A DNA stretch of 64,000 bases from an uncultured Chloroflexia bacterium (lineage in GTDB: Bacteria > Chloroflexota > Limnocylindria > QHBO01). Location: positions 32,763-96,762 of the forward strand of contig CAWJIR010000006.1 in assembly GCA_963843015.1 (NCBI GenBank), given 5' to 3'. Shown one piece after another: positions 5,208 through 14,939 of this stretch (within the stretch, counting starts at the first letter, position 1; the number at the start of each line of letters is the position of its first letter). Made by a program: the position numbers and the translations under genes. Below the pieces are notes generated by a model, which saw only the letters and a program-made list of their open reading frames with translations, ran no database searches and was not told the DNA's origin.

Positions 5208-6673
5208 TTACTCCCCTGAGCCGTCGTCGGCGAACGTGTCGTCACCGGCCCGGACCTGAGCCGTGGCCGCCCCGCCGAGCGCGGCCGGCATCGGGCGCGG
5301 CAGCGCCGGCGGCTGGACGAATCGGTCAACCAGGTCGCGGGTGCCGTCCACGCCAAGCCGATCGAAGAGCAGTCCGAACCGGGCGCCCAGGTTGGCGCCG
5401 ATCTGGGCCTCGGCATCGGGACCGATGGACCACAGCGCTTCCTTGAACGGGCCCAGCGCCTTCTTGCGGGTCTTGTACAGGAACTGCTCATCGGTCTCGC
5501 CGGGCTTGCGCTCATCGGCGCAGTTGGCCACGCACCACGCCATCATCTCGGCCCGCAGTTCCGGCGGGAGACCGCCGTCGTCGTACAGGATGTTCTGGAA
5601 GCCGGTGGCGAGATGGATCTCGGCGCAGCCGGCGGCCGGGAAGTGGCCGAACGCCTCCTCCGGCAGGGTGCTGGCCCCGTGCTGGACGCAGCCGGCCAGC
5701 CCGAACTCGTCTCGGGCGACGGTCGACAGCCGGCCGAGCGTGTCGAAGTCGAGCGCGACGGGGCGCCACGGAGCCGTCGGGCAGGACCACGCCGCCGTGC
5801 GACGTGCCGGTCTGGATGCTCACTTTGCTCAGGCCAGGCAGGTCGGTCCCGCCGTTGTCGTCGGAGCGCCGCCCGGTACTCGGCTACGTAGGCGCGGAGC
5901 TCAGCCTCGGTGGAGTTGACCTTGCCCACCTCCCCGATCTCGCCGCCGACAGAGATCGTCACGTCGTCGGGCCCCAGGTCGCGGATGAGCCGGGTCAGGT
6001 CCGCTGTCCGCTCGGCATTGACCCGCTGCTGCTCGGAGATGGTGGGCTGCGCGAGGTCGACCAGCGTGCTCGCGTCGATGTCGATGTTCAGGAAGCCCGC
6101 GCCGACGGCCTCGCGGACGAGGTCGCGGAGCCCGTCGGCCTCGGCGTCGGGGTCCGCCGCCCACCGCGTGGCGTTGAACTGGAAGTGGTCACCCTGGAGG
6201 AAGACCGGCCCCGACCAGCCTTCGCGCAGGGCGGCCGCCAGGATGACCGCGGTGTACTCGTCGGGGCGCTGGTCGGTATAGGCCATCTCACTCTTCGCGA
6301 TCTCGAAGACGAGGGCCCCGACCGCGCGCTCGCGGGCCGTGGCGAACGCGGTGCGGGCCGTCAGGTAGGCAGCAGCTCGGACGTTGATGGCCGGCACGGT
6401 GAACGCGGTCGGTGAGAACGCCCGTCGGCCGCGGGCGGCATACAGGTCCCGGATGGAGGCCGAGGGACAGCCGAGCGCCTGGCTGGCGGACCAGATCACC
6501 CAGCGCGCAGCGTCGCGAAGGTCCGGCTCGGGGTGGAAGACCGCGTCGCGCACCAGCCGGTCGGTGAGCGGGCCGCGAAACGCGGAGGGATCGGCGACCG
6601 ACAGTCCATCGGTTCCGATCGTCGCGGCCGGACGGAGGGCCTCCCGCAACGCGTCTGCCGAGGCCACGGTCAT
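5208..6673 (-). CDS. Class II fructose-bisphosphate aldolase, long form, frameshifted
   Basis: [34 protein letters not shown], then TSHGG and QHGASTLP in another frame; start 6673 or 6682. Confidence 0.85.
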
Positions 6674-6683
6674 GGGCCGCATG

Positions 6684-7050
6684 CTAGCCCAGCCACCCCA
6701 GCCCGGCGAGAATCGAGAAGGCCAGCAGCGGGGCGATGACCACGCCCACGATGGCGGCCACCACGTACCACTCGCGCCCGCCGTTGGGATCCGCTCCGGG
6801 ACGGCGGCGGAGGCGCGCGGCCCAGGCGACGACCGCGCTCAGCAGGGCCACGTACAGGATCGCGCCCAGACCGATGACGGCCAGGACGAGGTCGCGTGTG
6901 GCGCCACAGTCGACGCGCCAGCCAGCCGCCGGGCGGGCAGGGGGTCGCGAGCTCGAGTCCGATGACCGCCCCGGCCGCGACCAGGACGGCGGCGGACCAG
7001 CCGAGGTGGACGAGGAGCAGGCGGCGCAGGAGGTGGCTGGTCTTCCGGCC
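6684..7050 (-). CDS. Hypothetical membrane protein with about 3 TM helices, frameshifted, start unclear
   Basis: Hydrophobic segments LLLVHLGWSAAVLVAAGAVIGL, LVLAVIGLGAILYVALLSAVVAWA and WYVVAAIVGVVIAPLLAFSILAGLGWLG with GC-rich codon usage. Confidence 0.5.
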
Positions 7051-7629
7051 TCAGCCCGCAGCCCGCGCCGATGCCGCGGCCGCCTGCTGGGCTTCGCGCC
7101 GGCTGGCCCGACGGAACTCGTAGTACAGGTAGCCCAGCGCAAGGGTGCCCATGCCCGCGGTCATCGCCCCCAGCGCCAGCGCGATGAGCGGCAGCTCGAG
7201 CGGAATGAACGATCCACCGGCCACGTTGAACACGAGGTACGGGATCAGGAGCAGCATGACCGCGATGTAGTTGAGCAGGACGAACAGCCGGGTGAGCGTC
7301 CAGCCCGGGCCGCGCCTGCCGCGGGATGCCTGGACCAGCGCGGCGAGGATGACGACCAGCACCACGTTCGTCCAGGCCACCCCGTTGGCGATGATGAACC
7401 CAACCTCGGGCGCGAACGACAGGAACTCGATGTACTGGGTCACGCCGTAGTAGACCGAGTTCGGGACGTAGGTGAACAGCCAGTAGATGAACAGGAACAG
7501 GGGTACCGCCTTGAGGCTGGCGATGAGCCACGTCTCGCCACCGAACAGGAGCCAGTTCGTGAAGTCGTCCGCCTCACCGATGAGACGGGCGAGCACACCG
7601 CGGCGCCGGGGGAGGGCGTAGGTCGTCAT
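7051..7629 (-). CDS. Hypothetical integral membrane protein (about 4 TM) in the Rieske/cyt b operon
   Basis: Intact 192 aa ORF, aromatic-rich hydrophobic helices, ATGA overlap with the cytochrome c stop. Confidence 0.75.
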   Translation of the reverse strand: MTTYALPRRRGVLARLIGEADDFTNWLLFGGETWLIASLKAVPLFLFIYWLFTYVPNSVYYGVTQYIEFLSFAPEVGFIIANGVAWTNVVLVVILAALVQASRGRRGPGWTLTRLFVLLNYIAVMLLLIPYLVFNVAGGSFIPLELPLIALALGAMTAGMGTLALGYLYYEFRRASRREAQQAAAASARAAG

Positions 7630-8728
7630 GGGGTGTGGTCCCCCTCCAGGAGGAACGTGATCAGGGCCTGGAGCTGGGAGTCACTCACCTCGGTCTCGTC
7701 GAACGCCGGCATGGCGGTCGGGATTCCCGCCGTTGTAGACCGATGAGTCGCGGATCCAGGCCTGGAGGAAGGCCCGCGGATCCGCATCGTAGTCGGCCTG
7801 CATCTGTTCGAGATCAAGGGTCTGGGTCGTCAGGCCCTCGGTGACAAGCGAGGTGCCGATGGTCTGGATGTTCGGCCCGGTCACGCCCTCGAGCTCGGGC
7901 CCGTGGCACGCCACGCACCCGACCGTGGCGAACACCTCGGCCCCGGCCTCCACCGTGTCCGGCACCTCGACCGACGGCGGTGGGTTGTCGAGCGTCTCCT
8001 GTGCCCACTCCCCGATCATCGCGGTCAGGGCCTCGATCTGCTGGCGGGTGAGGGTGCCGCCGAAGTCCTGGCCCCACGCCGGCATCGGGCTGTTGATGTT
8101 GCCCGCCACCACGATCCCGCCCAGGGTGATGACCCACGACACGTAGTTGTTCAGGGTCTGCGGGCCACCGGTCTGGAGCCACTTGTTGGCCAGGCTCACC
8201 GAATGGAGGTTCGGGCCGATGAGGCCGGCACCGCCCATGCCATCGACCCCGTGGCACCGCGCGCAGTTCGCGCCGTACGGCTGGAGGTGGGGCGGACCGG
8301 CGGTGACGGTGAGCGTGCCCTCGATGCCGCCCGCGGTGACCGTCGTTTCGCCGTCTTCGTTGAACTTCACCGGCGCGGTCTTCTGCGGTTCCGATCTCGA
8401 CCTCGAACGACTCGATGCCGCTTCCCGCCACCGAGACGGTCGCCGCGGTGTCGTTCCGGAAGCTGATGGACGAGTTCACGAAGAGGTTGATCGACGTCAG
8501 TGGCACCAGCTGGGTGTCTCCCGCCTCCTGGGCGAAGCCGGTGTCGGTGACGATGACCTCGACGGTGTACGTGTCGTCGGGGAGGAAGACGACCGGACCG
8601 AACTCGAGCAGCTCCTCGTGCCGAGTCTCGGCCCCGACACCCCGCCGTGGCGCATCGGTGATCCAGTAGAAGGTGGTGAACGCGGCGAAGCCGACCATCA
8701 GCGCCACGCCAAGTGCCTTCATCCGCAT
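7626..8728 (-). CDS. Membrane-anchored dihaem c-type cytochrome (QcrC-like) with cupredoxin-like insert, frameshifted
   Basis: N-terminal TM; CARCH with distal SPMPAW; CVACH with distal TAMPAF. Confidence 0.85.
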
Positions 8729-8738
8729 CGGCGTGCTC

Positions 8739-9361
8739 CTAGATGGCGCAATGCGGGATGTCCTCGGGGAGGCGGTTATCGAAGGTCGCGGTCCCGATCG
8801 GCGGTCCCTTGATCAGCACCGCGGTGTTGACGATGTAGACCCCGTTCTCGATCCGGTGCTCGAAGCGGTCCATTCCGCGGGGCGCCGGCCCATCTCGCTT
8901 CTCGCCCAGGACCGTGTACTTCGACCCATGGCACAGGCACTCGAACCAGTTGCTGCGGTCGCAGAGCTGGGGGATGTTGCAGCCGAGGTGCGGGCACTTG
9001 CGGTACATGGCCAGGATGTCCATGCCCGGGTCGGCGGTCTCCTCCCCGGTGCCATTGACGCGCGCCTCGGCGGCGGGCACGTTGACGATGAACAGGCGGG
9101 CCTTGTTGAAGATGAATGGCACGCCGCGCACCCACTCCGGCTGCTGGGTGGTGATGTCCGCGGCGGAGCCGATGACCAGGTTCGGGTCGCCGAGGCCGCC
9201 GCTCAGGTTCGGCCACAGGAACAGCACCGTGCCGCCGATGAACTGGAGGGTCAGGAGGCCGACGCCGACGCCCACGGCGCGTCGCAGGAAGCCCCGTCGG
9301 CTGATCTCGCGGACCGGCGGGCCCGGCTGCTCCCCCAGCTCGGCGGCTGGCCGGCGGTCAT
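8739..9361 (-). CDS. Rieske [2Fe-2S] protein (QcrA/PetC-like), one frameshift in the N-terminus
   Basis: Tat-like ISRRGFLRR plus TM; box I CPHLGC; box II CLCHGSKY; GPAPRGMD. Confidence 0.92.
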
Positions 9362-9371
9362 GAGAGCAGGG

Positions 9372-9992
9372 TCATAGGGTGAAGAACAGGCCTTCCCACG
9401 GCCAGACCCAGATCCAGCCCGGCCCCCGGAAGAAGGCGCCGATGAGGGTCACGGCGATGCCGAAGAACATGATGCTCAGGAAGAAGATCCACGCCACCTT
9501 GCGGTCCCGTGCGGCGCGATACGGGGAGCGATCCACGTAGGCGATCAGGGCCAGGCCGATGAAGTAGACCGGCGGAATGAAGATCCCGGCCACCGTCGCG
9601 TTGAAGTAGGACAGGATCTCCTGCAGGCCGAGGAAGTACCACGGTGCCTTGGCCACGTGCGGCGTGACGTTGACCGTGGCCTGCTCCTCGAGCGGCGCCT
9701 GGATGAAGAACGACATGACCAGGAGCACGAAGGTGATCAGGCAGGCCATCAGGAACTCGGCCCGCAGCAGGTGCGGCCAGGTCAGGACCGTCTCGTCGGG
9801 CCGCTTGTCGACGCGGACCATGGACTCCTGGCGGACGTAGGCCAGCAGCCGGAAGCGCTCGGTGCCCGGAGCGCCGGGTGGTCCGGGCAGCTTGGGGCCC
9901 TGGCCCGGGACGGCGGGCGGAGCGACCGGGACCGGCGCCTGGGTCGGGGCGTTCTTGTCGGCCGTGGCGTTGGGTCGCTTCTCGATCGTCAT
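9372..9992 (-). CDS. Cytochrome b6 subunit IV-like (C-terminal half of a split cytochrome b)
   Basis: WPHLLRAEF, APLEEQA...TP..AKAPWYFLGLQEIL (PEWY-equivalent), 3 TM helices. Confidence 0.88.
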   Translation of the reverse strand: MTIEKRPNATADKNAPTQAPVPVAPPAVPGQGPKLPGPPGAPGTERFRLLAYVRQESMVRVDKRPDETVLTWPHLLRAEFLMACLITFVLLVMSFFIQAPLEEQATVNVTPHVAKAPWYFLGLQEILSYFNATVAGIFIPPVYFIGLALIAYVDRSPYRAARDRKVAWIFFLSIMFFGIAVTLIGAFFRGPGWIWVWPWEGLFFTL

Positions 9993-10002
9993 CGGTCAGT
10001 CC

Positions 10003-10746
10003 TCATACCGGTCCGCTGATGCCGCCGTCTTTCCGGATCCGCCAGAAGTGGATGACCATGAAGACGGCGGTGATGAGTGGGAAGGCGATGACGTGGAAGA
10101 CGTAGAACCGGATGAGCGTCTCCTGGCTGACCTCCACGCTGCCGAGCAGGATGAGGTTCGACTCGGTGGGCACGAGCGGGGCATAGGCCGCCATCTGGGT
10201 TCCGACGGTGACCGCCCAGAACGCGATCTGGTCCCACGGCAGCAGGTACCCGGTGAAGCTCAGCCACAGGGTGCAGAACAGCAGGAACGTGCCGACCGCC
10301 CAGTTCCACTCCCGCGGCGGCTTGTAGGCCCCGTGGTAGAAGACCCGCATCATGTGCAGGAACACGGTGAGCACCATGAGGTGGGCGCCCCAGCGGTGCA
10401 TGTTCCGCACCAGCGAGCCGAAGGCCACGCTGTTCTCGATGGCGATGATGTCCTGGTAGGCGCGATCGACCGAGGGGATGTAGAAGAACATCAGGTACAG
10501 CCCGGTCACGGTCAGGACCAGGAACAGGAAGAAGCTGACCCCGCCCAGGCAGAAGGTGTACGTGTAGCGCACCGCGTGGCGCTTGACGCGCACCGGGTGG
10601 AGGTGGAGGAACACGTTGTTCATCACCGCCAGGGCGCGGGTCCGCGACGTGGTCGGGTACGGCTGGCGGATCAGGGATCGCCAGAAGTTCGACTCCTTGA
10701 CGAGGCGGATGGGGAGCCAGTCCTGGCCGGGCGGCTTGCGGGTCAC
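10003..10746 (-). CDS. petB: Cytochrome b6-type N-terminal subunit (PetB/QcrB)
   Basis: FCLGG (haem ci Cys), MHRWGAHLMVLTVFLH, GYLLPWDQ, FHVIAFPLITAVFMVIH; 247 aa; GTGA overlap with the upstream flavoprotein. Confidence 0.93.
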   Translation of the reverse strand: MTRKPPGQDWLPIRLVKESNFWRSLIRQPYPTTSRTRALAVMNNVFLHLHPVRVKRHAVRYTYTFCLGGVSFFLFLVLTVTGLYLMFFYIPSVDRAYQDIIAIENSVAFGSLVRNMHRWGAHLMVLTVFLHMMRVFYHGAYKPPREWNWAVGTFLLFCTLWLSFTGYLLPWDQIAFWAVTVGTQMAAYAPLVPTESNLILLGSVEVSQETLIRFYVFHVIAFPLITAVFMVIHFWRIRKDGGISGPV

Positions 10747-12716
10747 CGCTCGACCACCACTCCGGCCTGCTGTCCGACCTGGCCGAGCACGTTGTCCTTG
10801 TAGCTCTCCAACAGGACCTTCCCGTCAGGGGTGAACCGCTCGAGCTCGAGCCGGTCCATGGTGATGCAGTTGGTGGGGCACCGTTCGACGCACAGGTTGC
10901 ATCGGATGCAGCGTTCCTCGTCGATGACCATCGCGATGCCCCGCGGCCACGCCTGGAACAGGTCAACCTCGGGGTCATCACCGCCCACCTGCGCCTTGTC
11001 GACCATGTAGATCACGCCCTCGGGGCAGACGTCAGCGCAGAGCCCGCACAGAATACAGCGGGGTCCGTCGATGTTGATGTTGTGGTTGCACTGGAGGCAG
11101 CGCGACCCTTCGGTGATGGCGCTCCGCGTGTCGTAGCCGATCTCGACCAGGCCGGTGAAGTCGCGCCGCATCTCGGGTGGGGCCATGGGAATGTGCTGAC
11201 GCGGGTATGCCTCGTAGAAGCGCGGCATGTCGTGGTCGAGGGCCTGGGTGATCGTTGCCCGGTTGATGACCGGCAGCTCGGCCAGCTCCTCGCCGCGGAC
11301 GCCGGACAGCCAGCGGTCGACCGCCCGCGCGGCGCGCCGGCCGAGACCCGCCGCCTCGATGATCGTGGCCGGGCCGGTGACGTAGTCCCCGACCGCGAAC
11401 ACGCCATCGACGGTCGAGGCGAAGGTGTTCCGATCGGTCACGATCTTGCCCCGCATCAGCTCGAACTCGAGCGCGTTCAGCTTCTTCCCGTCCGGCCCGA
11501 CGGGCGTCGAGCCGTTCAGCGGCTGGCTGCCCCAGGACGTGATCGAGCCGCCAGGCACGACCTCGCGGGTATCGGTCACGCCGATGTGGCGGTTCAGCGG
11601 CGACCCGTATTCGCCGAGGACGTTGTTGTCGGGGGACTGGCTGGTGCAGGGGATGACCATGTCGCACGGGATCACGAACTCGCTGCCGGGGATGGGCTCC
11701 GCCGTCCGGCGGCCGCTGGCGTCCGGAGGCCCAAGCTGCGTGCGCTGGAAGACCGCGCCCTTCACGTGGCCGGCCTCGTCGGCGAGGATCTCGACCGGCG
11801 CGGCGAAGTACTCGAAGCGCACGCCCTCGAACCGGGTCTCGTGCTGCTCCTCCTCGTCGACGACCATCTCCTCGGGGCCCCGGCGGTAGGCGACCACGCT
11901 GGTGGTGGCACCCAGCCGCAGCGCGGTGCGGCTGGAGTCCATGGCCGTGTAGCCGCCTCCGACGATCACGACGTGCTTGCCGACCCACTGTTCCTGGCCG
12001 AGGTTCGCGCGCTTCAGGAAGTCGACGCCGTAGATCACGCCATCGAGCTCCTCGCCGGGGACGTTCATGGCGACCGGGTACATGCAGCCGGTGGCGACCA
12101 CCACCGCGTCGTGCCGCGCCTGCAGCTCGTCCAGGGTCACGTCGCGGCCAACCTCGACGTTGTAGTGGAACTCGACCCCGTGCTTGGCCACCCAGTTGAC
12201 GTCGAGCTCGATGACGTCCCGCGGGAGCCGGAAGGCAGGCACGCCGATGAGGGTGGTTCCGCCCCCGGACGGCAGCGCATCGTAGACGTGGACCTCGTGC
12301 CCCCACCCGGCCAGCTCCTTGGCTGCGCTCAGGCCCGCCGGCCCGGCGCCGATCACGCCCACGCTCCGCCCGGTGGCGGGCGCAACCTGGATGTCGTCGG
12401 GCATGTTGTTGGCGTAGTGCCAGTCCACGAGGAACCGCTTCATGGCCCGGATGGCCAGTGGCTTGTCGATGTCCGCGCGGCGGCAGGCCTTCTCGCAGGG
12501 CGCGGAGCAGACGTAGCCGCAGATGGCGGCGACCGGGTTCGGGTCGCGGGCGAGGATGTAGCCCTCCTCGAAGCGGCCCTCGGCCGCGAGCATGAGATAG
12601 CCGCGGCAGTTGGTGTTGACCGGACACCCTTCCTGGCACTCGATGTTGCACTGGAGCCAGTCGACGCCGACCTCTGCGGTCTGGAAGCGCAGGGGCACCG
12701 CTTCCCGGGTCGTCAT
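10743..12716 (-). CDS. NAD(P)H-dependent flavo-iron-sulfur oxidoreductase (GltD/NfnB/DsrL-like) with C-terminal 2x[4Fe-4S] ferredoxin domain
   Basis: Intact 657 aa ORF; CNIECQEGCP, ICGYVCSAPCEKAC, GAGPAG (FAD), GGGYTAMD...YRR (NADP-type), GD..TGPATII.A, RCLQC, CILCGLCADVCP, CIRCNLCVERCP. Confidence 0.9.
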   Translation of the reverse strand: MTTREAVPLRFQTAEVGVDWLQCNIECQEGCPVNTNCRGYLMLAAEGRFEEGYILARDPNPVAAICGYVCSAPCEKACRRADIDKPLAIRAMKRFLVDWHYANNMPDDIQVAPATGRSVGVIGAGPAGLSAAKELAGWGHEVHVYDALPSGGGTTLIGVPAFRLPRDVIELDVNWVAKHGVEFHYNVEVGRDVTLDELQARHDAVVVATGCMYPVAMNVPGEELDGVIYGVDFLKRANLGQEQWVGKHVVIVGGGYTAMDSSRTALRLGATTSVVAYRRGPEEMVVDEEEQHETRFEGVRFEYFAAPVEILADEAGHVKGAVFQRTQLGPPDASGRRTAEPIPGSEFVIPCDMVIPCTSQSPDNNVLGEYGSPLNRHIGVTDTREVVPGGSITSWGSQPLNGSTPVGPDGKKLNALEFELMRGKIVTDRNTFASTVDGVFAVGDYVTGPATIIEAAGLGRRAARAVDRWLSGVRGEELAELPVINRATITQALDHDMPRFYEAYPRQHIPMAPPEMRRDFTGLVEIGYDTRSAITEGSRCLQCNHNINIDGPRCILCGLCADVCPEGVIYMVDKAQVGGDDPEVDLFQAWPRGIAMVIDEERCIRCNLCVERCPTNCITMDRLELERFTPDGKVLLESYKDNVLGQVGQQAGVVVER

Positions 12717-12818
12717 GGGCGTTCGCAGTTCATCGCGCGTCCCCTTTGGCTCCCCCAGCGATCGGCGTCAGATTCCTGCCGTGGACCGGCGTTTTCGAAG
12801 GCGAGTTTCGGCGATTCG

Positions 12819-12848
12819 ATGCTACCCGTCGCCCGCTCGCGGTGTCAA
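12819..12848 (-). promoter_or_regulatory. Sigma70-type promoter of the flavoprotein-Rieske/cyt b operon
   Basis: Minus-strand TTGACA-18 nt-TAGCAT, about 100 nt upstream of ATG 12716. Confidence 0.65.
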
Positions 12849-12887
12849 AGACGGACGAGCGTCAGGAAGCGGTCCGTCGGGCGTTCC

Positions 12888-14939
12888 TCAGCGGTTGAAG
12901 TAGGTCGCCATCACCCGGCGGACGAGGGGTGCGGCGTCGGAACCGCCGGTGCCCAGGTGGACGCGGGCGAGGAGCGTGGCAACCACGATCTCCGGGTTGG
13001 CGGCAGGCGCGAAACCTGGGAACAGGGCGTGGGGGTCGGGACCACCCGATTCGGCGGTTCCCGTCTTGCCGGCAACAGGGATCCCGAAGCCAGAAAAGGC
13101 GGGTGTCGCGGTCCCATACGAGTAGGTGGTCACCGCCTGGAGGGTGGTGACGAGGTAGTCGAGGTCGGCCCGCTCGATGGCGAACTGGTGGCGAACCCGC
13201 GGACGGGTGCGGTACAGGGCCTCGCCGTCGGGGCCGGTGGCGCTGGTCACGAGGCGCGGCGTCCACAGCGTCCCGCGGTTGGCGAAGGCGGCATAGGCCA
13301 TCGCCATCTGGAGCTGGGTGCCCTCGAACGAGCCCTGGCCGATGGCCAGCTGGACCTGGTCGAACGGCCCGAAGGGGATGTATTCGCCGGAGCCGCGGGG
13401 GTGGCCCTCGAACCACAGCGCGTCCGGGAGGACTCCCGGCGTCTCGTTGACCCATCCGATGCCGGTGAGCTGCCCGAAGCCGAAGTCGGCGAGGAGATCG
13501 GTCAGCGCATCGCGTGTCCTGCTCGTAGATGACCATCGACAGGGGCATGTAGGTCGTGTTGCAGCTGAACGCCATCGCTTCCTCGAGCGACACGAGCCCG
13601 GGCAGCTGGTGGAGCTCGAAGTTCACGAACTGCACGCCACCGAAGTCCCAGGTCGGCCGGCACGTCATGCGCGTCGCGGGCGTGGCCACGCCAGTCCACA
13701 GGGCCGCCGCGAGGGTGAACGGCTTGAATGAGGAGCCGGTCGGGTAGGCCGTCTCGAGCGCATGGTTCGCCATCTGGCTGTCGGTCGGGGCGGCGAGCGG
13801 TGCGCCGCCGTTGGTCGTTCCCAGGGTCATCGCGTTCGGGTTGAACGCCGGCGCCGAGGCCAGGGCCCAGACATCGCCGGTTCGCGGGTCCACGACCGCG
13901 GTCGCCGCCTCGGGATAGCCGGCGAGCGCGGCCTCGGCCGAGCGCTGGAGGTCGGGCTGGATGGTGAGGCGGACGTCCGCGGCGGGAACGAGCGGCCGCT
14001 CGACGACCGGTCGAGCGGGTCCCGCGCCGTGGGGATCCACGAGCAGGGTCAGGGCGGCCCGGCCGCGCAGGAGCCACTCGGCGCCGGCCTCGACCCCCCG
14101 GCGGCCGGCGACCTGGCCGGCCTGGTATCCGTCGACCACGGGACGAGCAGCGGCCTCCTCCTCCGTCAGCGGCGTCGCGTAGCCGATCGTCTGGCCGGCG
14201 AGCGCCTCCTGTGGGTAGACCCGCAGGCCGTCGGCGCGGTTCGTGGCCAGCACCGTGCCGTCGGCGGCGAGAATCTGGCCGCGGGCCGGGAGCGGTCCTT
14301 CCTCGAGCAGGAACGTGCCACCGGTCGCCCCGAGCTCGGGGAAGAGGAGCTCCGGGGTCCAGCGAACCTCCCAGCCGGCCGGCCCCTCGGTCAGCTCGAG
14401 GACCCGGTCGAGCACGATCTCGCTCGAAGAGCACGGAGTGGAACGTGAGCCGGACGGGGAAGGCGACGGCGGGGACTGGTCCGGCGACGATCCCGTGTGG
14501 ATCCGACCGGAGCCGGGGACCCGCTCGGCCGAGGCGCCGCGGTCGGGGCGGGAGACGCCGAGACCCCAGGCGGACGCGGCTCGGGCGATCGGGCAGTGGA
14601 CCGCGGGGAACCGATGGCGACGTCCATCCTGATCAGACCGATGGCATCCTCGAATGCCTCATGCAGGGCCACGAACCCGGCCCGCGTATACCGATCGCGG
14701 TCGGCCGCAGCCAGGACCTCGTACCGACGCGCGTGGTCGCCGATGCGCCACAGGGCGACAAATCGCTCGACCGCGGCGCGAGCCTCTCCCTGCGACGACG
14801 GCTCCGATGCCGCGGCGACCGGCGGTGGCAGGAGCGCCGTCAGACCGATGGCGAGAGCGAGCCCTCCGGCCAACAGCCGCCCGGTGCGGCCACCCGCGTG
14901 CAGTCCCGTCGAGCGTGGGTCGGTCGCGTCGATCGTCAG
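12888..14939 (-). CDS. Class B penicillin-binding transpeptidase with NTF2/MecA-like N-terminal domain, frameshifted
   Basis: SxxK (GSSFK), SxN (SCN), KTG (AGKTGTAE); RGQILAADG dimerisation-domain motif; N-terminal hydrophobic anchor; start 14873 (TTG) or 14939 (CTG). Confidence 0.85.

Follow-up and report, generated by a model that had tools for sequence, protein, structure and literature searches.

Why should a gene for a cytoplasmic flavoprotein of the NfnB/GltD type stand at the head of an operon whose other members encode the parts of a respiratory Rieske/cytochrome b complex? The question is raised by a locus within a 64,000-nucleotide stretch of DNA from an uncultured Chloroflexia bacterium of the class Limnocylindria (GenBank assembly GCA_963843015.1, contig CAWJIR010000006.1, positions 32,763 to 96,762; hereafter the window, with positions counted from its first nucleotide). 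Between positions 6684 and 12716 lie seven closely spaced genes, all on the minus strand, which encode the flavoprotein, a cytochrome b6, a subunit IV (SUIV), a Rieske iron-sulfur protein, a membrane-anchored dihaem cytochrome c, and two small membrane proteins. Each gene was found where the original prediction, made from the sequence alone, had placed it, and the proposed gene identities were corroborated by Pfam and NCBIfam profiles, by sequence searches against the Protein Data Bank (PDB), and by fold searches. The names of the sources of near-identical proteins agree with an assignment to Candidatus Limnocylindria of the phylum Chloroflexota. As argued below, the operon probably specifies the sole quinol:cytochrome c oxidoreductase of its host, a b6-type complex of the APWY clade that would carry the NfnB/GltD-type flavoprotein as a subunit on its cytoplasmic (n) side.

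Few respiratory enzymes are understood as well as complex III, yet the clade to which this complex belongs, known as the APWY clade or as subfamily G of the cytochromes b, has never been characterised, and what is known of the form that bears the flavoprotein comes entirely from genomes and, in anammox bacteria, from a single complexome study and AlphaFold models. The Limnocylindria are aerobic, have small genomes, and are abundant in soils and lakes. With one cytochrome b complex to consider, they offer a simpler setting than the anammoxosome in which to ask about the role of the flavoprotein, for which the candidates are entry of NADPH into the Q cycle, quinol-driven generation of NADPH, and a redox valve.

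The cytochrome b6-type core

The cytochrome b6 matches the Pfam family Cytochrome_B (PF00033, 5e-43) and scores 289.4 bits against the NCBIfam model cytb_ExtP, for which the cut-off is 290. It contains the four histidines that bind haems b, the cysteine for haem cn within a CxGG motif (FCLGG), an N-terminal LHLHP, and a C-terminal WRIRKDGGISGP. Both the histidine pairs for haems bp and bn and the FCLGG sequence are invariant in alignment A1, and CxGG is present in nearly all loci of the clade; equally invariant in alignment A1 are His48, within LHLHP, and Arg238, both of which are also found in members of the clade that lack the flavoprotein. SUIV is recognised by Pfam Cytochrom_B_C (1e-6) and NCBIfam ExtQ (7.5e-15), begins with an extension rich in proline and alanine, and ends directly after its third helix, the helices having been judged by inspection. 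Its Qo motif, APWY, lies within KAPWYFLGLQE at residue 116, and a glutamate in WPHLLRAEF, before helix 1, occupies the position of the haem cn axial-ligand type; 83 of 85 aligned members of the clade have APWY, and the same number have this glutamate.

The Rieske protein (Pfam Rieske, 2.5e-7) carries the cluster-binding boxes CPHLGC and CLCHGSKY, and its top PDB matches, 9rk4 and 9rk3, are anammox Rieske proteins as judged from their titles and their near-identity to a Brocadia open reading frame (ORF). The cytochrome c consists of an N-terminal helix, a beta-rich domain of ~110 amino acids, and two class-I haem domains, each with a CxxCH motif. Assembled, the core would comprise cytochrome b6 with haems bp, bn and cn, the three-helix SUIV, a Rieske protein exported by the twin-arginine translocation (Tat) pathway, and the membrane-anchored dihaem cytochrome c; it would run a Q cycle and feed a haem-copper oxidase.

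A number of residues were considered as possible markers of flavoprotein linkage, namely the histidines of LHLHP, the histidine of KRH, Arg238, the SUIV glutamate, APWY, and the CHGS-x-Y of the Rieske protein. All were rejected, having proved to be clade-wide; they thus place the complex within the clade and say nothing on the role of the flavoprotein.

A flavoprotein of the NfnB/GltD type

The flavoprotein is a cytoplasmic protein of the flavo-iron-sulfur type. Its N terminus is formed by a GltD/NfnB-type domain with two clusters (Fer4_20, 3e-17), its central FAD/NAD(P)H domain is recognised by Pyr_redox_2 (4e-29), and the 2x[4Fe-4S] domain at its C terminus matches Fer4_7 (5e-11). Sequence searches of the PDB returned NfnA (9n5u, 4e-98; 9bov, 2e-95), NfnB (4ylf, 3e-84), and FwdF (5t5i, 5e-11). 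When an AlphaFold2 model of the protein (predicted local distance difference test, pLDDT, 81; predicted template modelling score, pTM, 0.82) was used in a fold search, the best matches were StnC (8oh5_C) and NfnA (9n5u/9bov), with a TMq of 0.65 over ~650-700 columns, and the next were NfnB and GltD (both at TMq 0.56) and DPD. Fifteen cysteines, five N-terminal and ten C-terminal, are invariant among 37 homologues. A Y-R-R sequence after the second Rossmann strand is typical of the NADPH-binding proteins GltD, NfnB and DPD, and it is on the invariant Y-R-R of the present protein that a preference for NADPH is proposed.

Two features vary among homologues. The flavoproteins of Limnocylindria possess two additional cysteines (C23 and C37) in the N-terminal cluster domain, and those of the window's family alone contain an insert of ~45 amino acids (residues about 376-420; window 11457-11591), placed where the chain leaves the NADPH domain and re-enters the FAD domain, in which the model has a pLDDT below 50 at residues 376-405. 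Arg511 of the anammox flavoprotein Kuste4570 was also examined as a candidate shared residue; its likely Brocadia counterpart, R514 (within CGRC), aligns to Leu559 here and is not conserved, with the numbering being uncertain.

Conserved linkage within Limnocylindria

If the flavoprotein serves the cytochrome complex, the two would be expected to travel together, and within the class they do. The flavoprotein family was found in 31 of 31 relatives searched, with an orthologue in every family of the class, and the order flavoprotein-cytochrome b6-SUIV-Rieske-cytochrome c is identical in the fetched loci of all five families sampled. Across genera of the window's family, the flavoprotein (84%) and cytochrome b6 (77%) are more alike than are the Rieske protein (58%) and cytochrome c (53%); a flavoprotein as conserved as cytochrome b6, and more so than either of the latter, suggests purifying selection. 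In a sample of 400 genomes from the phylum, an orthologue of the flavoprotein was detected in 39 genomes of the class and was missing from seven, belonging to two genera. No real cytochrome b6 was detected in these seven genomes, with G000 and G020 serving as positive controls; the flavoprotein and cytochrome b6 are thus retained and lost as a pair.

Elsewhere in the Chloroflexota, one of 20 homologues of the same architecture drawn from other families stands beside a cytochrome b6. In this genome (G378; contig L027, 6184-8860) the flavoprotein gene overlaps that of a CxGG cytochrome b6; no SUIV, Rieske or cytochrome c gene was found near the module, and no haem-copper oxidase in the genome. 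A metagenome contig related to G378 (L046) contains the complete five-gene order together with a gene for a protein with an EB_dh haem domain.

Linkage in other phyla

The wider distribution was surveyed by scanning one genome per species with a cytochrome b6 profile, which yielded 80 loci from many phyla, and by searching the flanks of each. A full flavoprotein gene adjoins cytochrome b6 in all loci of the Limnocylindria type, in Brocadia sp. WS118 and another planctomycetotal metagenome-assembled genome (MAG), and in two Terriglobia, one member each of the Bryobacterales, Verrucomicrobiia and Ardenticatenales, and one doubtfully labelled MAG. The linkage occurs in at least four other phyla, and the conserved association on which the original prediction was to be judged extends well beyond the class. 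Naming 20 clusters from the top 150 representatives did not recover the anammox flavoprotein, which was found by way of the cytochrome b6 contig scan. In three flavoprotein-linked loci from Acidobacteriota and Verrucomicrobiota (L116, L119 and L122), the CxGG cysteine is lacking (YYLGS, LGLGL and FYLGG), so linkage to the flavoprotein is independent of a covalently bound haem cn. Neither the flavoprotein nor a ferredoxin was found in the flanks of cytochrome b6 in Thermomicrobiales, Dehalococcoidia, Dormibacterota, Ktedonobacteria, Phycisphaerae, and several Acidobacteriota.

A reduced form of the arrangement exists in 12 loci of the Actinomycetota (Acidimicrobiia and relatives; Table 1), where a gene of ~120 codons for a 2x[4Fe-4S] ferredoxin lies directly upstream of cytochrome b6. 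This stand-alone ferredoxin is homologous to residues 545-623 of the flavoprotein and precedes a cytochrome b6-SUIV-Rieske cluster of the same clade, and is likely an n-side iron-sulfur subunit without the flavin part. Since it is this part alone that the Actinomycetota retain, the C-terminal ferredoxin domain of the flavoprotein is taken as its contact with the cytochrome, and would serve as the docking and electron-transfer module. In a quick cytochrome b6 tree (FastTree, without inspection of support values), Limnocylindria have the ferredoxin-bearing group of Actinomycetota as their sister, and the remaining flavoprotein-linked forms lie scattered.

These distributions bear directly on a different account of the locus, according to which the flavoprotein is no subunit at all, but a soluble oxidoreductase, acting between NADPH and ferredoxin or another acceptor, that has only a promoter in common with the cytochrome genes. 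Such an account would explain why the majority of homologues sharing its domain order are single genes among unrelated neighbours and why the nearest solved relatives (StnC, NfnA, NfnB and GltD) are soluble, and it has more difficulty with the 4-nucleotide overlap between the flavoprotein and cytochrome b6 genes, with a linkage that is conserved throughout the class and that has either arisen or been maintained in four or more other phyla, with the joint loss of the two genes, and with the two-gene and ferredoxin-only variants, both of which adjoin cytochrome b6. Further, the anammox complexes co-migrate as one complex in Kuenenia, according to work cited in PMC12954380. We consider a mere sharing of a promoter to be quite improbable, and attachment of the flavoprotein at the n side of cytochrome b6 is what we infer from the genomic pattern.

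Relationship to known systems

The closest counterparts of the operon are the clusters of anammox bacteria, Kuste4569-4574 and Kustd1480-1485 in Kuenenia and their orthologue in Brocadia (L097). NAD(P) oxidoreductase genes in the Rieske/cytochrome b clusters of anammox bacteria had been named in the original prediction. The flavoprotein is homologous to Kuste4570 and Kustd1483, and the match extends over its full length, with 36% identity to the Brocadia protein over residues 18-623 by tblastn and 38% in alignment A2. The Brocadia locus encodes, in order, a Rieske protein, a flavoprotein of 589 amino acids, a cytochrome b6 of 256, a SUIV of 240, a multihaem cytochrome c (362 amino acids), and an octahaem protein resembling HAO (588 amino acids), which is the arrangement of Kuste4569-4574 (PMC12954380). 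Several characteristics are shared. Firstly, the five N-terminal and ten C-terminal invariant cysteines of the flavoprotein are present in both, and the nearest solved folds are likewise NfnABC (9bov/9bp5) and FwdF (5t5i), structures also retrieved for Kuste4570 by Hauser et al. Secondly, the adjoining b6-type cytochrome b has CxGG, the LHLHP histidine, and the arginine of WR(V/I)RKDG; His43 and Arg247 of Kuste4571, which have been proposed as ligands of an extra inter-monomer haem b (PMC12954380), correspond to His48 and Arg238 here, the numbering having been checked on the Brocadia orthologue. Thirdly, SUIV carries APWY and the glutamate before the first transmembrane helix, the Rieske protein carries CHGSKY, and anammox Rieske proteins are the best PDB matches. 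Additionally, AlphaFold 3 places the anammox flavoprotein on the n side (PMC12954380).

There are also differences. In Limnocylindria the flavoprotein gene comes first and the Rieske gene follows that of SUIV, whereas the Brocadia cluster opens with the Rieske gene; a class-I cytochrome c with two haems is the exit subunit, in place of a hexa- or octahaem protein, and an HAO-like partner is lacking; SUIV has 206 amino acids and three helices, compared to 240 amino acids and five helices (a two-helix tail of ~70 amino acids) in Brocadia; and C23 and C37 are peculiar to the N-terminal cluster domain of the Limnocylindria flavoprotein. The host, moreover, is an aerobe with a haem-copper oxidase, a sole cytochrome b complex, and no anammoxosome.

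Comparative studies have previously defined the group to which these proteins belong. Subfamily G of the cytochromes b (Dibrova et al., 2013, 2017; PMC5600118), equivalent to the APWY clade named for its Qo motif (Kao and Hunte, 2014; PMC4122944), is characterised by a short CxGG cytochrome b, a split SUIV with APWY, and a patchy spread over many phyla (PMC5600118, PMC4122944), as well as by co-occurrence with a large, cysteine-rich NAD(P)-binding oxidoreductase (PMC5600118). The window proteins display all of these traits, which indicates that the operon is of an already known, biochemically uncharacterised kind. The association between a short subfamily G cytochrome b and an NAD(P)-binding iron-sulfur protein goes back to Kartal in 2011 and 2013 and Dibrova in 2013, as cited in PMC5600118, and was said by Dibrova et al. 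in 2017 to occur "in many other cases" (PMC5600118); with the gene association in print since 2011-2013, the system is less poorly described than the original prediction implied. The subfamily G papers do not cover Limnocylindria, and no paper on the operon in this class was found in the literature, nor any experimental structure or activity for a flavoprotein-bearing Rieske/cytochrome b complex.

Two further comparisons help to delimit the flavoprotein. With NfnB, GltD and the StnC-NfnA (Bfu) proteins it shares the two-cluster Fer4_20 domain and the FAD/NADPH domain with YRR, and with StnC and NfnA a ferredoxin-type domain following the latter. It differs from them in that the operon has no NfnA, GltB or NuoE/F-like gene and its neighbour is a membrane cytochrome. 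As neither the operon nor the DNA flanking it encodes an NfnA or GltB partner, the flavoprotein is neither an Nfn nor a GOGAT subunit. The b6f complex of cyanobacteria and chloroplasts with its bound FNR presents a parallel: b6 and SUIV are likewise split, haem cn is present, and the n side carries an NADPH-flavoprotein that is proposed to feed Qn. In contrast to b6f, however, the present complex lacks cytochrome f and the small Pet subunits and has APWY instead of PEWY, and its flavoprotein, rather than being a plant-type FNR, is an operon-encoded GltD/NfnB-type protein with four iron-sulfur clusters.

Place of the complex in the cell

The operon's cytochrome b6 is the only PF00033 match in the window's genome (G000), in the complete genome G012, and in G013, G020 and G026, all of which encode subunit I of a haem-copper oxidase. 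No NrfD-type protein, and hence no alternative complex III (ACIII), was found in the window's genus; complex I is present. With a sole cytochrome b, no ACIII, and an oxidase to supply, the complex must pass quinol electrons forward to cytochrome c. Such a forward requirement speaks against the suggestion of Kao and Hunte that APWY complexes generally run in reverse (PMC4122944).

Complex I itself carries a related module. Its operon contains NuoE-like and NuoF genes and, between nuoH and nuoJ, a gene for an 866-amino-acid fusion of the NuoG N-terminus, a GltD-like flavoprotein and 2x[4Fe-4S]; the fusion is a paralogue, 40% identical, of the operon flavoprotein (Table 1). Complex I and complex III of the class would thus both be equipped with NADPH modules of the GltD type.

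Evidence against the proposed flavoprotein-bearing complex

Several observations weigh against the proposal that the operon encodes a quinol:cytochrome c oxidoreductase fitted with the flavoprotein. Flavoproteins of the same architecture are common in other Chloroflexota (37-42% identity) and mostly stand alone, and a homologue from Nitrospinota (P0273) and the nearest representatives from outside the class (P0123 and P0139), each considered as a possible cytochrome b-linked form, likewise turned out to be stand-alone genes. Because same-architecture genes stand alone in Chloroflexota, in Nitrospinota and in P0123, the fold by itself implies no cytochrome b partner. Within cytochrome b6, SUIV and the Rieske protein, no residue was found that distinguishes flavoprotein-linked complexes from the rest. 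The quinone substrate is also a concern: neither MenA/MenB above the curated cut-off nor MqnA/D was found in G000, G012, G005, G013, G016, G018 or G026, which do possess complex I, the Rieske/b6 complex and a haem-copper oxidase. MenA and MenB do occur side by side in another genome of the class (G020), and uptake or an unfamiliar pathway are possible sources of quinone in the window's genus. The anammox literature, moreover, favours a direction of electron flow opposite to the one preferred here, namely quinol bifurcation to NADP+ (PMC12954380). Lastly, several of the operon's genes are broken in frame in this particular assembly.

Direction of electron flow

According to the original prediction, the Qi/haem ci side could exchange electrons with NAD(P)H, a reasonable idea that matches proposals made for anammox bacteria (PMC12954380, PMC5600118). 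The path would lead through NADP(H), FAD, four iron-sulfur clusters (two N-terminal, and 2x[4Fe-4S] in the C-terminal domain), and haems cn/bn.

Flow from NADPH to haem cn and the Qn site is the direction toward which we tentatively lean, while stopping short of calling it probable. In this direction the complex would also act as an NADPH:quinone reductase, itself non-pumping, from which its own Q cycle is supplied, much as FNR is proposed to do on b6f. Firstly, the reaction is preferred because it would be downhill by ~250 mV. Secondly, relatives free of the flavoprotein keep the Qn-side residues, so that the core would be a working Q-cycle enzyme, to which an input is more easily added than a competing output. 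Additionally, the two-gene module of G378, in a genome with no oxidase, resembles a membrane-anchored NAD(P)H dehydrogenase of the kind proposed by Dibrova et al., and the same genomes that carry the operon carry the paralogous GltD module in complex I.

Under the model of Kartal for anammox bacteria, in comparison, quinol would drive the reduction of NADP+: bifurcation at the Qp site would send one electron to the Rieske protein, cytochrome c and O2, and the other by way of bp and bn/cn to the iron-sulfur chain, FAD and NADP+, such that the complex makes NADPH instead of returning that electron to quinone. The Limnocylindria cluster is homologous to the one for which the model was proposed (PMC12954380) and has in common with it the APWY Qo motif (PMC4122944), the cytochrome b6 residues His48 and Arg238 that match the His43/Arg247 extra-haem ligands of the AlphaFold 3 model, and the Rieske Ser/Tyr pair (CHGSKY), which in Kuste4569 goes with a potential of +303 mV and, in a menaquinone organism, points to a very low-potential bp (PMC12954380). 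All of these supporting residues, however, are also present in members of the clade without the flavoprotein. With menaquinone at ~-70 mV and cytochrome c at ~+250-300 mV, the net driving force would be only ~80-130 meV per quinol, even before the cost of the electrogenic step against the membrane potential, and reduction of menaquinone at Qn would compete strongly, a difficulty that the model's own authors concede (PMC12954380). Nor does an aerobic heterotroph have any evident need for such a route. Generation of NADPH by quinol bifurcation is accordingly regarded as unlikely in these organisms, and flow from NADPH into the Qn site remains the preferred direction.

Frame breaks in the assembly

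As assembled, the operon contains four frame breaks, near positions 9333, 8378, 7723 and 6915, which were mapped by reference to the intact orthologues in the complete genome of the same genus, G012. In the Rieske gene, one nucleotide is missing near 9333 relative to G012 and G005, which cuts off the Tat signal RRGFLRR; reading the corrected frame from the upstream ATG (Table 1) restores it. The cytochrome c gene changes frame near 8378 and again near 7723, the intact 363-amino-acid orthologue of G012 being spread over three frames of the window, and one extra base near 6915 divides membrane protein 2 between two frames. Outside the seven genes, a class-II aldolase-like gene is broken twice (an intact 488-amino-acid orthologue in G012 corresponds to three window frames), and the flanking PBP gene is broken as well, the density in flanking genes being similar to that in the operon and roughly 0.7 breaks per kb overall. 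All of the broken genes are intact in close relatives.

Four breaks in one operon might be taken to mean that it is a decaying pseudogene cluster in this organism. That reading is set aside because the flanking housekeeping genes (PBP and aldolase-like) are broken at the same density and the relatives are intact, with intact genes at 75-98% identity in every one. Furthermore, the breaks are single-base indels, the genome is 64% complete in 13 contigs compared to ~90% for close relatives of the same size, and the operon's cytochrome b is the only one in the genome. Decay is thus judged extremely improbable, and the frame breaks are most likely assembly errors; the density of indels suggests an error-prone assembly of the long-read type and probably explains the completeness score of 64%.

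Organization and expression of the operon

The features of the locus are collected in Table 1. Close packing of the genes, with 4-nucleotide overlaps or gaps of about 10 nucleotides, holds for most of the operon: the stop of the flavoprotein gene overlaps the GTG start of cytochrome b6 by 4 nucleotides (GTGA, as predicted), a translationally coupled junction, the ATG of membrane protein 1 overlaps the stop of cytochrome c (ATGA), and gaps of 10 nucleotides each separate cytochrome b6 from SUIV, SUIV from Rieske, and Rieske from cytochrome c. It does not hold for membrane protein 2, which is separated from membrane protein 1 by ~90 nucleotides. The description of the products of these last two genes as unknown membrane subunits is borne out in part, as both encode membrane proteins with no family assignment; both are conserved only inside the window's family and are no more than candidate subunits. 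Specifically, no Pfam or NCBIfam match was obtained for membrane protein 1, which is syntenic in all loci of the window's family (48-83% identity) and has no counterpart in other families, and membrane protein 2 has a weak match to DUF6223 that falls below the cut-off.

Table 1. Features of the flavoprotein-cytochrome b6 operon and of related loci. Positions refer to the window unless another genome or locus is named.
Feature	Position	Strand	Description
Flavoprotein	10743..12716	(-)	657 aa; Fer4_20 + Pyr_redox_2 + 2x[4Fe-4S]
Cytochrome b6	10003..10746	(-)	247 aa, four helices; GTG start; Pfam Cytochrome_B
Subunit IV (SUIV)	9372..9992	(-)	206 aa, three helices; Pfam Cytochrom_B_C
Rieske iron-sulfur protein	8739..9361	(-)	assembled ORF start 9275; corrected ATG 9361
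Dihaem cytochrome c, membrane-anchored	7626..8728	(-)	Pfam Cytochrom_C + Cytochrome_CBB3
Membrane protein 1	7051..7629	(-)	192 aa, polytopic; no family match
Membrane protein 2	6684..6957 (5' end about 6957)	(-)	~90 aa, two helices
Class-II aldolase-like gene (GatZ/KbaZ-like)	5208..6682	(-)	488 aa when intact; F_bP_aldolase match
PBP gene, flanking	12862-14415		frame-broken as assembled
Sigma-70-like promoter	12819..12848	(-)	-35 TTGACA 12848-12843, 18-nt spacer, -10 TAGCAT 12824-12819
Six-codon upstream ORF MNCERP	12713..12733	(-)	read from sequence
NuoG-GltD fusion region	G000:C5:116487-118148 (NuoD C5:121812-122550); L044 (G026) 7198-12099
Ferredoxin-only loci	L084, L095, L096, L103, L105, L109 (ORF ending 8894), L117, L118, L123, L125, L127, L128

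The predicted promoter, TTGACA-18-TAGCAT, is the sole match to the consensus within positions 6400-13100 (6.7 kb), where 0.3 would be expected from shuffled sequences. The block containing it (TTTGACA..GGGCGACGGGTAGCATCGA) does not vary among 9 genomes of the genus, with the flank just upstream varying; in other genera of the window's family the -10 core GGGTAGCAT is conserved and the part GGGTAGCATCG is retained. A scan for terminators inside the operon returned nothing above chance.

Between promoter and flavoprotein lies an upstream ORF (uORF) encoding MNCERP, with an AGGGGA Shine-Dalgarno sequence 7 nucleotides before its ATG and a TGA that overlaps the ATG of the flavoprotein (ATGA). Its ATG and frame are conserved in 9 of 9 genomes of the genus, with codons 2-3 varying, and it is absent from other genera of the family, in which GGAGAG-N12-GTG precedes the flavoprotein. 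The arrangement suggests that the flavoprotein may be translated by termination-reinitiation or translational coupling.

At the opposite end, the aldolase-like gene, whose G012 orthologue matches F_bP_aldolase (1e-11), begins 1 nucleotide past the stop of membrane protein 2 in both the window and G012. The operon may for this reason extend further at its 3' end, with the aldolase-like gene co-transcribed with the respiratory genes.

Implications for the respiration of Limnocylindria

Were either of the first two candidate roles of the flavoprotein, NADPH entry or NADPH generation, to prove true, the textbook Q cycle would gain a new input or output. A more radical possibility, and one that we hold to be rather unlikely, is that Limnocylindria respire around NADPH by way of the paralogous GltD-type modules of complex I and complex III, the b6 complex being a self-contained NADPH:cytochrome c oxidoreductase that feeds its own Qn site and runs the Q cycle with a small or tightly bound quinone pool; if true, this would explain the presence of a full respiratory chain without recognisable menaquinone genes in the window's genus. 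No less bold would be the alternative in which quinone-based bifurcation onto NADP+ is widespread in the respiration of abundant aerobes, and not an anammox curiosity. Lastly, the ferredoxin-only form of the Acidimicrobiia and the two-gene module fit the published idea that cytochrome bc complexes began as membrane-anchored dehydrogenases.

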